Assembly (NCBI RefSeq): GCF_056712565.1
Contig: NZ_CM160072.1
DNA length: 64,000 nt
Strand: one strand, 5' to 3'
In this document: positions 10,019-16,490 of the stretch, piece after piece
Layout of the letters: each line of letters opens with the position of its first letter
Numbering within the stretch: position 1 is the first letter of the stretch
Position numbers and translations under genes: made by a program
The notes under the pieces: generated by a model
What the model saw: only the letters and a program-made list of their open reading frames with translations
What the model was told of the DNA's origin: nothing
The model's database searches: none

Positions 10019-10855
<837 letters not shown>

Positions 10856-10907
10856 CCACAAGATATTTATGGTGATGCAAAAACAACACATTTAATTCGT
10901 TGAATAT

Positions 10908-10940
10908 AAAGGGCTTTAATTTTTGGCCCTTTTATTTTTA
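10908..10940 (+). terminator. Rho-independent terminator after dapB
   Basis: gggc...gccc stem followed by T-rich run (aaagggctttaatttttggcccttttattttt). Confidence 0.5.
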
Positions 10941-11159
10941 GTGTTATGCTTTTAAATCTAATGCAAATGCTGAAAATTACATGTTTTGTATTCTGTTTTT
11001 GTTGTTTTAATGTAAATTTTGACCATTTGGTCCACTTTTTTCTGCTCATTTTGATTTCATGCAATCTTCTTGCTGCGCAAGCGTTTTCCAGAACATGTTA
11101 TATGATCTTTTTGTCGCTTAATGCCTGTAAAACATGCATGAGCCACAAAATAATATAAA

Positions 11160-11310
11160 AAATCCCGCCATTAAGTTGACTTTTAGCTCCCATATCTCCA
11201 GAATGCCGCCGTTTGCCAGAAATTCGTCGGTAAGCAGATTTGCATTGATTTACGTCATCATTGTGAATTAATATGCAAATAAAGTGAGTGAATATTCTCT
11301 GGAGGGTGTT
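11160..11310 (+). promoter_or_regulatory. carAB tandem promoter/operator region with ARG-box-like sequences
   Basis: AT-rich region immediately upstream of carA containing tgaattaatatgcaaat and gtgaatattc motifs resembling ArgR boxes; assignment from known carAB regulation. Confidence 0.5.
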
Positions 11311-12459
11311 TTGATTAAGTCAGCGCTATTGGTTCTGGAAGACGGAACCCAGTTTCACGGTCGGGCCATAGGGGCAACAGGTTCGGCGGTTGGGGAAGTC
11401 GTTTTCAATACTTCAATGACCGGTTATCAAGAAATCCTCACTGATCCTTCCTATTCTCGTCAAATCGTTACTCTTACTTATCCCCATATTGGCAATGTCG
11501 GCACTAATGACGCCGATGAAGAATCTTCTCAGGTTCATGCCCAAGGTCTGGTGATTCGCGACCTGCCGCTGATTGCCAGCAACTTCCGTAATACCGAAGA
11601 CCTCTCTTCTTACCTGAAGCGCCATAACATCGTGGCGATTGCCGATATCGATACCCGTAAGCTGACGCGTTTACTGCGTGAGAAAGGTGCTCAGAATGGC
11701 TGCATTATCGCAGGCGATAACCCGGATGCGGCGCTGGCATTAGAAAAAGCCCGCGCGTTCCCAGGTCTGAACGGCATGGATCTGGCAAAAGAAGTAACCA
11801 CCGCAGAACCCTATAGCTGGACACAAGGGAGCTGGACACTGACCGGCGGCCTGCCAGAAGCGAAAAAAGAAGACGAGCTGCCGTACCACGTCGTGGCCTA
11901 CGATTTCGGTGCCAAGCGCAACATCCTGCGTATGCTGGTGGATAGAGGCTGTCGCCTGACCATCGTTCCGGCGCAAACTTCTGCGGAAGATGTGCTGAAA
12001 ATGAATCCGGACGGCATCTTCCTCTCCAACGGTCCTGGCGACCCGGCCCCGTGCGATTACGCCATTACCGCTATCCAGAAATTCCTCGAAACTGATATTC
12101 CGGTATTCGGCATCTGCCTCGGTCATCAGCTGCTGGCGCTGGCGAGCGGTGCGAAGACTGTCAAAATGAAATTTGGTCACCACGGCGGCAACCATCCGGT
12201 TAAAGATGTTGAGAAAAATGTGGTGATGATCACCGCCCAGAACCACGGTTTTGCGGTGGATGAAGCAACATTACCTGCAAACCTGCGTGTCACACATAAA
12301 TCCCTGTTCGACGGTACGTTACAGGGCATTCATCGTACCGATAAACCGGCGTTCAGCTTCCAGGGACACCCGGAAGCCAGCCCTGGTCCACACGACGCCG
12401 CGCCGTTGTTTGACCACTTTATCGCGTTAATTGAGCAGTACCGTAAAACCGCTAAGTAA
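11311..12459 (+). CDS. carA: Carbamoyl-phosphate synthase small (glutaminase) subunit
   Basis: ORF 11284..12459 trimmed to TTG 11311 ([12 protein letters not shown]...), 382 aa, SD ggaggg upstream; carA is known to use a UUG start. Confidence 0.93.
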
Positions 12460-12476: not shown

Positions 12477-15400
12477 ATGCCAAAACGTACAGATATAAAA
12501 AGTATCCTGATTCTGGGTGCGGGCCCGATTGTTATCGGTCAGGCGTGTGAGTTTGACTACTCTGGCGCGCAAGCGTGTAAAGCCCTGCGTGAAGAGGGTT
12601 ACCGCGTCATTCTCGTGAACTCCAACCCGGCGACTATCATGACCGACCCGGAAATGGCTGATGCAACCTACATCGAGCCGATTCACTGGGAAGTGGTACG
12701 CAAGATTATTGAAAAAGAGCGCCCGGACGCGGTGCTGCCAACCATGGGGGGGCAGACGGCGCTGAACTGTGCGCTGGAGCTTGAGCGTCAGGGCGTGCTG
12801 GAAGAGTTCGGCGTCACCATGATTGGTGCCACTGCCGATGCGATTGATAAAGCCGAAGACCGCCGCCGTTTCGACGTAGCGATGAAGAAAATCGGTCTGG
12901 AAACTGCGCGTTCCGGTATCGCTCATTCAATGGAAGAAGCGCTGGCGGTTGCCGCTGAAGTTGGCTTCCCGTGCATTATTCGCCCATCCTTTACCATGGG
13001 CGGTAGCGGTGGCGGTATCGCTTATAACCGTGAAGAATTTGAAGAAATTTGCGCCCGCGGTCTGGATCTTTCTCCGACTAAAGAGCTGCTGATTGATGAG
13101 TCGCTGATCGGCTGGAAAGAGTACGAGATGGAAGTGGTGCGTGATAAAAACGACAACTGCATCATCGTCTGCTCTATCGAAAACTTTGATGCGATGGGCA
13201 TCCACACCGGTGACTCCATCACTGTCGCGCCAGCCCAAACGCTGACCGATAAAGAATATCAAATCATGCGTAACGCCTCGATGGCGGTACTGCGTGAAAT
13301 CGGCGTTGAAACCGGTGGTTCCAACGTCCAGTTTGCGGTGAACCCGAAAAACGGTCGCCTGATTGTTATCGAAATGAACCCACGCGTGTCTCGCTCCTCT
13401 GCGCTGGCGTCGAAAGCCACTGGTTTCCCGATTGCCAAAGTGGCGGCGAAACTGGCGGTGGGTTACACCCTCGACGAGCTGATGAACGACATCACCGGTG
13501 GGCGTACTCCGGCCTCCTTCGAGCCGTCCATCGACTATGTGGTTACTAAAATTCCTCGCTTCAACTTCGAGAAATTCGCCGGTGCTAACGACCGTCTGAC
13601 CACTCAGATGAAATCGGTTGGCGAAGTGATGGCGATTGGTCGCACGCAGCAGGAATCCCTACAAAAAGCGCTGCGCGGCCTGGAAGTGGGCGCAACTGGC
13701 TTCGATCCGAAAGTGAGTCTCGACGACCCGGAAGCGCTGACTAAAATCCGCCGCGAACTGAAAGATGCTGGCGCAGAGCGTATCTGGTATATCGCTGATG
13801 CCTTCCGCGCGGGCCTGTCTGTAGACGGTGTATTTAATTTGACCAACATTGACCGCTGGTTCCTGGTACAGATTGAAGAGCTGGTGCGTCTGGAAGAGAA
13901 AGTCGCAGAAGTGGGCATCACTGGCCTGCACGCTGAATTCCTGCGCCAGCTGAAACGCAAAGGCTTTGCCGATGCGCGTCTGGCAAAACTCGCGGGCGTG
14001 CGTGAAGCAGAAATCCGCAAGCTGCGCGACCAGTATGACCTGCACCCGGTTTACAAGCGCGTGGATACTTGTGCGGCAGAGTTCGCCACCGACACCGCTT
14101 ACATGTACTCCACTTATGAAGAAGAGTGCGAAGCGAATCCGTCCACCGATCGTGAAAAAATCATGGTGCTCGGCGGCGGCCCGAACCGTATCGGTCAGGG
14201 TATCGAATTCGACTACTGCTGTGTACACGCCTCGCTGGCGCTGCGCGAAGACGGTTATGAAACCATTATGGTTAACTGTAACCCGGAAACCGTCTCCACC
14301 GACTACGACACCTCTGACCGTCTCTACTTCGAGCCGGTAACTCTGGAAGACGTGCTGGAAATTGTGCGTATTGAGAAGCCGAAAGGCGTTATCGTCCAGT
14401 ACGGCGGTCAGACCCCGCTGAAACTGGCGCGCGCGCTGGAAGCTGCTGGCGTACCGGTTATCGGTACCAGCCCGGATGCCATCGACCGTGCGGAAGACCG
14501 TGAACGCTTCCAGCATGCGGTTGAGCGTCTGAAACTGAAACAACCGGCGAACGCCACCGTTACCACCATCGAAATGGCGGTTGAGAAAGCGAAAGAGATT
14601 GGCTACCCGCTGGTGGTGCGTCCGTCTTACGTTCTCGGCGGTCGGGCGATGGAAATCGTCTATGACGAAGCTGACCTGCGTCGCTACTTCCAGACAGCGG
14701 TCAGCGTATCTAACGATGCGCCAGTGTTGCTGGACCACTTCCTTGATGACGCAGTAGAAGTTGACGTGGATGCCATCTGCGACGGCGAAATGGTGCTGAT
14801 TGGCGGCATCATGGAGCATATTGAGCAGGCGGGTGTGCACTCCGGTGACTCCGCATGTTCACTGCCAGCTTACACCTTAAGTCAGGAAATTCAGGATGTG
14901 ATGCGCCAGCAGGTGCAGAAACTGGCCTTCGAACTGCAGGTGCGCGGCCTGATGAACGTGCAGTTTGCGGTGAAAAACAACGAAGTCTACCTGATTGAAG
15001 TTAACCCGCGTGCGGCGCGTACCGTTCCGTTCGTCTCCAAAGCCACCGGCGTACCGCTGGCAAAAGTGGCGGCGCGTGTGATGGCTGGCAAATCGCTGGC
15101 TGAGCAGGGCGTAACCAAAGAAGTTATCCCGCCGTACTACTCGGTGAAAGAAGTGGTGCTGCCGTTCAATAAATTCCCGGGCGTTGACCCGCTGTTAGGG
15201 CCAGAAATGCGCTCTACCGGGGAAGTAATGGGCGTGGGCCGCACCTTCGCTGAAGCGTTTGCCAAAGCGCAGCTGGGCAGCAACTCCACCATGAAGAAAC
15301 ACGGTCGTGCGCTGCTTTCCGTGCGCGAAGGCGATAAAGAACGCGTGGTGGACCTGGCGGCAAAACTGCTGAAACAGGGCTTCGAGCTGGATGCGACTCA

Positions 15401-15698
15401 CGGCACGGCGATTGTGCTGGGCGAAGCGGGTATCAATCCGCGTCTGGTGAACAAGGTGCATGAAGGCCGTCCGCACATTCAGGACCGTATTAAGAATGGC
15501 GAATATACCTACATCATCAACACCACCTCAGGTCGTCGTGCGATTGAAGACTCCCGCGTGATCCGTCGCAGTGCGCTGCAATATAAAGTGCATTACGACA
15601 CCACCCTGAACGGCGGCTTTGCCACCGCGATGGCGCTGAATGCCGATGCGACCGAAAAAGTAATTTCGGTGCAGGAAATGCACGCGCAGATCAAATAA
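12477..15698 (+). CDS. carB: Carbamoyl-phosphate synthase large subunit
   Basis: 1073 aa ORF with duplicated ATP-grasp halves. Confidence 0.97.
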
Positions 15699-15779: not shown

Positions 15780-16490
15780 TGCACAGAAAACCCCCAGCTA
15801 GGCTGGGGGTTCCGGAAAGCTTTCAGCTTTGAGCCAGTTATTAAAACCCCTTTTGATTTGTTAAAACACCTTGCGGTCTGGCAACTGCAAGTGTCAAACA
15901 AGAAATCAAAAGGGGGTCCCAATGGGGAACGAAAAGAGCTTAGCGCACACCCGATGGAACTGTAAATATCACATAGTATTTGCGCCAAAATACCGAAGAC
16001 AGGTGTTCTACAGAGAGAAGCGTAGAGCAATAGGCTGTATTTTGAGAAAGCTGTGTGAGTGGAAAAGTGTACGGATTCTGGAAGCTGAATGCTGTGCAGA
16101 TCATATCCATATGCTTGTGGAGATCCCGCCCAAAATGAGCGTATCAGGCTTTATGGGATATCTGAAAGGGAAAAGCAGTCTGATGCCTTACGAGCAGTTT
16201 GGTGATTTGAAATTCAAATACAGGAACAGGGAGTTCTGGTGCAGAGGGTATTACGTCGATACGGTGGGTAAGAACACGGCGAAGATACAGGATTACATAA
16301 AGCACCAGCTTGAAGAGGATAAAATGGGAGAGCAGTTATCGATTCCCTATCCGGGCAGCCCGTTTACGGGCCGTAAGTAACGAAGTTGGATGCAAATGTC
16401 AGATCGTGTGCGCCTGTTAGGGCGCGGCTGGTAAGAGAGCCTTATAGGCGCATTTGAAAAACCTCCGGCTATGCCGGAGGATATTTATTT
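15780..16490 (+). mobile_element. IS200-type insertion sequence (IS200/IS605 family), about 0.71 kb; boundaries approximate
   Basis: Contains a 152-aa HuH Y1 transposase gene; subterminal imperfect palindromes cccccagctaggctggggg (15791-15809) and cctccggctatgccggagg (16462-16480); carB-caiF spacer is about 710 bp longer than in K-12 (from memory). Confidence 0.8.
15922..16380 (+). CDS. tnpA: IS200 transposase TnpA (Y1 HuH family)
   Basis: ORF 15871..16380 trimmed to ATG 15922 (MGNEKSLAHTRWNCKYHIVFAPKYRRQ...), 152 aa; SD ggggg upstream. Confidence 0.9.
   Translation: MGNEKSLAHTRWNCKYHIVFAPKYRRQVFYREKRRAIGCILRKLCEWKSVRILEAECCADHIHMLVEIPPKMSVSGFMGYLKGKSSLMPYEQFGDLKFKYRNREFWCRGYYVDTVGKNTAKIQDYIKHQLEEDKMGEQLSIPYPGSPFTGRK

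Follow-up and report, generated by a model that had tools for sequence, protein, structure and literature searches.

The UUG start of Escherichia coli carA and an upstream in-frame GTG within a predicted ARG box

The carA gene of Escherichia coli has been described as having TTG as its initiation codon (PMC6245113; PMC2952853). Two promoters, the pyrimidine-controlled P1 and the arginine-controlled P2, serve the gene. The P1 start is located 100 nt upstream of the TTG (PMC2952853), the P1 transcript has GUUUGC as its 5' end, and the P2 startpoint is 67 nt downstream of that of P1 (PMC6245113). The ArgR operator at carAB P2, reported in the literature to be bound by ArgR in its arginine-bound form, is composed of two 18-bp boxes spaced 3 bp apart (PMC6245113).

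The window analyzed here is a stretch of 64,000 nucleotides (NCBI RefSeq assembly GCF_056712565.1, contig NZ_CM160072.1; all coordinates are those of the window). A sequence-only reading of the window had proposed that its open reading frame (ORF) track overshoots the carA start, which would be a TTG 27 nt further downstream, consistent with the known UUG initiation of carA. The knowledge to which it appealed is indeed in print, as both papers name TTG as the initiation codon. The TTG start of carA is thus a textbook case and an ordinary finding, already known.

The carA locus and its ribosome binding site

Positions 11000–11600 show 100% identity to E. coli ATCC 11775, and 5425 of the 5426 complete E. 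coli genomes match them at ≥95% identity. Locally, the genes are arranged in the order dapB (10034–10855), carA and carB. The carA coding sequence (11311..12459, + strand) encodes the 382-residue glutamine-hydrolysing carbamoyl-phosphate synthase small subunit and has a TTG start; RefSeq annotation, PDB chains and the profiles TIGR01368, PF00988 and PF00117 identify it. The large-subunit gene of the same operon, carB (12477..15698, + strand; ORF list and RefSeq annotation), begins 17 nt past the carA stop, an adjacency expected of a CarA gene. A weak match to the DapZ RNA (RF02551, 24.9 bits, below the gathering score of 56) is found in the dapB 3' UTR (10862–10939, + strand), which is the position of origin of the Salmonella DapZ sRNA.

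The mechanical ORF list does open the frame where the earlier reading said, with a 391-residue ORF (11284..12459) whose first codon is the GTG at 11284..11286 (+ strand). The in-frame stop codon on its 5' side is a TAA at 11269. The TTG (11311..11313, + strand) lies 27 nt, or nine codons, downstream of the GTG and is followed by ATT AAG TCA GCG, encoding IKSA. Annotation, protein sequences, family profiles, the Shine-Dalgarno (SD) sequence, transcript ends, interspecies comparison, frameshift alleles and ribosome-profiling data all agree with the earlier reading in placing the carA start at this TTG, and it is almost certain that carA is translated from UUG 11311 and not from GTG 11284.

The RefSeq carA coding sequence is the equivalent of 11311..12459 in all six records inspected (ATCC 11775, REL606, P393-F10, SCEC020022, ETEC1720 and GF66.1). 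Deposited chains of the E. coli small subunit (1JDB, 1BXR, 1CS0 and others; 382 residues) start with MIKSALL and align from residue 10 of the 391-residue ORF. The TIGR01368 profile matches with 508 bits (curated cut-off of 307) over its positions 1–360 of 361, and its position 1 corresponds to ORF residue 14. The N-terminal domain PF00988 (CPSase_sm_chain) covers residues 16–141, with its position 1 at residue 16, and the C-terminal class-I glutamine amidotransferase domain PF00117 covers residues 205–381. Both profiles therefore start downstream of the nine extra residues, for which the family offers no equivalent. N-terminal peptides of carA were sought in the supplements of TRAINSPOTTER and of an mBio 2024 riboproteogenomics study, and none were found in either.

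The sequence GGAGGG, which the earlier reading took to be the SD of the TTG, is present at 11301..11306 (+ strand), and its GGAGG core is separated from the TTG by 5 nt. The 20 nt preceding the TTG form a duplex with the 3' end of 16S rRNA with an energy of −9.8 kcal/mol, which is in the top 3% of the 3217 NTG triplets of the window. The 20 nt preceding the GTG yield −0.7 kcal/mol, weaker than about 93% of these triplets, and by this measure no SD precedes the GTG. The TTG thus stands in frame where conservation of the protein begins and has an SD within 4–9 nt upstream, a configuration characteristic of SD-dependent UUG initiation. In the proposed mechanism, this strong SD (GGAGG with a 5-nt spacer) would position the 30S subunit at UUG 11311 and would compensate for the weakness of UUG as a start codon.

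Transcript ends and the ArgR operator

The 5' end of the P1 transcript can be assigned to GTTTGC at 11211..11216 (+ strand) from the published distance and the sequence itself. A promoter-like site, TTGACT-17-CAGAAT, is located just upstream at 11176–11204. The promoter scan that found P1 scored P2 below threshold, so the position of P2 rests on the literature. The published coordinates would put the 5' end of the P2 transcript at about 11278 (+ strand), 33 nt before the TTG and about 6 nt before the GTG, with a precision of about 1–3 nt because the values derive from old S1 mapping reported in reviews. A GTG that close to the 5' end would leave no room for an SD on the P2 mRNA. On the P1 mRNA, the GTG is 73 nt from the 5' end. 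Further upstream, the RutR box TTGACCATTTGGTCCA (11019..11034, + strand) is listed at −284.5 from the carA start codon (PMC2475637), a distance that fits only 11311 as the start.

The leader also contains a full-length match to the Rfam sRNA family ES003 (RF02750, 87 bits, gathering score of 37) at 11211–11263 (+ strand). This match begins at the P1 5' end, corresponds exactly to nucleotides 1–53 of the P1 transcript and reaches just to the border of ARG box 1. One possible identity for it is a short 5'-leader fragment of the carAB mRNA.

Two 18-bp matches to the ARG-box consensus WNTGAATWWWWATTCANW, separated by a 3-bp gap and overlapping the promoter, display the architecture of an ArgR operator as judged from sequence. 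Predicted box 1 (11262..11279, + strand), at P2, has one mismatch to the consensus, and predicted box 2 (11283..11300, + strand), which starts 3 bp after box 1, has three. The GTG at 11284–11286 occupies positions 2–4 of this second box, where the TG is part of the conserved half-site TGAAT. The pattern TGA..T....TATTC of box 2 is conserved across Enterobacterales. The GTG is most probably a part of the second ARG box overlapping P2 and not a start codon. As mapped here, the ARG boxes span the P2 −10 hexamer and startpoint (+1). In one review sentence they partially overlap the −35 element (PMC6245113), and other papers mention only "the promoter". This has no effect on the start-codon call.

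Conservation of the start region and rival start sites

For interspecies comparison, 120 Enterobacterales loci were retrieved with a single degenerate DNA pattern encoding 13 residues, which left the start region unconstrained, and the 119 loci with enough upstream sequence were used. The codon aligned to 11311 is TTG in all 119 and never ATG, and GGAGG with a 5-nt spacer is present in 117. The codon at −27, aligned to the GTG, is of a start type in an open frame in 85 loci (GTG in 68, ATG in 13 and TTG in 4). An in-frame stop separates it from the TTG in 16 loci, and in the other 18 it is not a start codon (CTG, CCG, TCG, GCG, ACG and others). In 34 of the 119 loci, the nine-codon extension is therefore either interrupted by a stop or without a start codon, and 30 of the 66 distinct sequences are unable to encode it. 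The alignment contains indels of 1–2 nt between ARG box 2 and the SD, which argues that this stretch is conserved as an operator plus SD and not as codons. The one name in the set that does not point to Enterobacterales, a Candidatus Rariloculus versatilis metagenome-assembled genome, likewise carries TTG at the position aligned to the carA start, preceded by AGGAG at a distance of 7 nt, so the TTG start of carA may extend beyond this order.

These data bear on dual initiation, in which the TTG would be the main start and a minor, longer isoform would be made from the GTG on the long P1 transcript. The GTG is in frame and 73 nt from the 5' end of that mRNA, most Enterobacteriaceae have an open frame with a start-type codon here, and the 85 loci with such a codon make the sequence alone compatible with P1 initiation at a very low level. 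However, the GTG has no SD, the ARG-box half-site accounts for its TG, any base (G, A, T or C) can stand first in the −27 codon, and the indels mentioned above are tolerated. Furthermore, no such site appears in the Ribo-RET or INRI-seq lists. A minor isoform of this kind is very improbable.

The published initiation-site data come from K-12, whose sequence is identical to that of the window strain in this region. The earlier reading had named ribosome profiling as a check, and the published retapamulin data show initiation at the annotated TTG both in vitro and in vivo. The annotated initiation site of K-12 carA in INRI-seq Table S2 (29651, equivalent to window position 11311) has 14.6–26.3 CPM in five of five in vitro replicates, and the in vivo Ribo-RET value at the TTG (Meydan et al. 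2019, as given in the INRI-seq tables) is 421.9, flagged as detected. Initiation at 11284, the observation that would have overturned the TTG assignment, was looked for in the same tables, and none is reported at the GTG, which is absent from INRI-seq Table S3. The synthetic transcript used in INRI-seq begins GGG-AAAGTGAGTG and did contain the GTG.

The only non-annotated carA site in Table S3 is a CTG at −12 (11299..11301, + strand), in frame with the TTG and overlapping the SD. In favor of this CTG as a physiologically used alternative start is the peak assigned to it in five of five in vitro replicates, a sign that initiation near the carA start is not entirely clean in a purified system. 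Its in vivo Ribo-RET value, however, is 0 (flagged FALSE), it has no SD of its own, and it is not conserved, being replaced by TTG, TCG, TAG or CCT in other genera. The INRI-seq authors acknowledge truncated synthetic transcripts as a source of aberrant sites. We attribute the peak to an artefact, either of the in vitro system or of peak assignment, on the truncated transcript and consider use of the CTG in the cell to be highly unlikely.

Natural frameshift alleles within E. coli separate the GTG from the gene. In the 63 nt around the start, the exact window allele is present in 5372 of 5425 complete genomes, and K-12-type genomes are identical to it. Strain REL606 carries a 1-bp deletion that converts GGAGGG to GGAGG, together with a C-to-A change that creates an ATG in TCTATGGAGG. 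The deletion places the upstream GTG out of frame, and the GTG ORF ends at a TGA overlapping the TTG. Genome GF66.1 has the same 1-bp SD deletion, also with the GTG out of frame, and in both genomes the spacer is cut to 4 nt. Both encode the standard CarA (WP_000597260.1), annotated from the TTG. REL606 grows on minimal medium in the long-term evolution experiment, so its carA evidently functions without an in-frame GTG. The deletion was also considered as a common allele and this was rejected: the REL606 allele is unique among the 5425 genomes, and GF66.1 carries its deletion separately. The start region itself, tTGAtTAAg (11311–11319), places a stop codon in each of the other two frames (TGA and TAA) right across the start codon, so that out-of-frame translation arriving from upstream, such as that of the REL606 GTG ORF, ends on top of the TTG.

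With the extension missing or out of frame in 34 of 119 species, in REL606 and in GF66.1, the GTG can hardly be entertained as the true and sole start of a 391-residue CarA. That reading has in its favor that no start-type codon of the ORF precedes the GTG, that the 391-residue form is deposited for CFT073, UTI89 and APEC O1, and that GTG, ATG or TTG stands at −27 in an open frame in 85 of 119 loci. It is contradicted by the missing SD, by the distance of only about 6 nt to the P2 5' end, by the position of the extension outside the family profiles and the sequences of solved structures, and by the initiation-site data, which report no peak there and a strong one at the TTG.

Equally close to dismissal is ATT 11314 (AUU) as the start in place of the TTG, although it lies 8 nt from the GGAGG core, a still acceptable spacing, and the start was reportedly given as "UUG or AUU" in the first sequence paper, by Piette et al. 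in 1984. Codon 2 varies across species (ATT in 97 loci, ATA in 17, AGT in 3, AAT in 1 and ACG in 1) and the TTG is invariant, which rules out ATT as a conserved start; moreover, TTG is the start given in subsequent publications of that laboratory (PMC6245113; PMC2952853), and annotation and PDB sequences start with M-I-K.

Over-extended records, the 5' coding stretch and related systems

The nine-codon extension is almost certainly an artefact of defining an ORF by the first start codon after a stop. The over-extension is a real observation, and it is one expected by chance: according to our own calculation, which assumes uniform codon use and thus start-type codons (3/64) as frequent as stop codons (3/64), about half of genes should have an in-frame ATG, GTG or TTG between their start and the nearest stop upstream. 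The earlier reading had presented carA as an example of automated calls that over-extend. This holds for the mechanical ORF list and for older GenBank records, and does not hold for the current NCBI PGAP pipeline, which has the TTG in every RefSeq record checked. The exact 391-residue sequence, identical to the mechanical ORF product, was deposited in early submissions for CFT073 (AAN78538.1), UTI89 (ABE05546.1) and APEC O1 (ABI99520.1) and has a UniRef entry with 24 members, whereas current RefSeq/PGAP records carry the 382-residue form. The longer form is found on 36 contigs and the shorter one on at least 1000. In the 90%-identity protein cluster to which CarA belongs, carB large-subunit proteins (1073–1075 residues) also appear and the representative has 1074 residues, which looks like a clustering artefact.

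carA is thus a worked example of unreliable "longest ORF" start calls, of little weight beyond annotation hygiene, and older entries in GenBank and UniRef continue to carry the nine extra residues. It also illustrates that an in-frame start-type codon can arise as a by-product of an overlapping DNA operator.

A peculiarity of the locus is that the nucleotides running from the SD to the end of carA codon 22 (about 11301–11376) are almost invariant across Enterobacterales, insect endosymbionts included. In codons 1–22, synonymous sites are retained along with rare codons (CTA, GGA, CGG and GGG). The mean frequency of the top synonymous codon in carA is 0.90 for codons 1–22 vs 0.71 for codons 23–140 (Mann-Whitney p of about 9e-7). 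The same measure applied to carB as a control gives 0.77 and 0.70, a much weaker effect at its 5' end. RNAalifold finds only a small invariant hairpin in the start region, with essentially no covariation, and the predicted folding of the E. coli P2 leader together with 75 nt of coding sequence is not superior to that of shuffled sequences (z = +0.47). Structure prediction thus does not point to a special fold. Rfam places no cis-regulatory family over the carA start; its "carA motif" riboswitch candidate was considered and set aside as unrelated, being confined to beta-proteobacteria.

This frozen stretch may reflect constraints that apply to initiation regions in general, although the degree of conservation is unusual. 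With a rather low probability, it marks a cis-acting post-transcriptional element not described so far, by which CarA synthesis is set or regulated; a binding site for a protein or an sRNA, a folding element or a ribosome-standby element would be examples. That the TTG and the synonymous sites following it are invariant throughout the order hints at selection for low or tunable carA initiation, which is a question separate from that of the start codon.

The locus is otherwise that of E. coli K-12 carA (b0032; PDB 1JDB, 1BXR and 1CS0, chain B): the gene, the dapB-carAB arrangement, the control region, the TTG and the SD are the same. The CarA protein of the window differs from the K-12/PDB sequence in three residues. 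The two also differ on the 3' side of the operon. In the window, carB is followed just downstream by an ORF for an IS200-type Y1 transposase (PF01797, E = 2.7e-36; 15871–16380, + strand), and the gene at the position after carB in K-12 is presumably caiF. As for UUG genes with a compensating strong SD, Weyens et al. (1988, J Mol Biol 204:1045) reportedly dealt with the role of the strong SD at the weak start codon of the carAB operon, and they are cited for the idea that such an SD can make up for a weak codon; here the SD is a near-perfect GGAGG at optimal spacing. The locus analyzed here is itself that published example, and there are no differences between the two.
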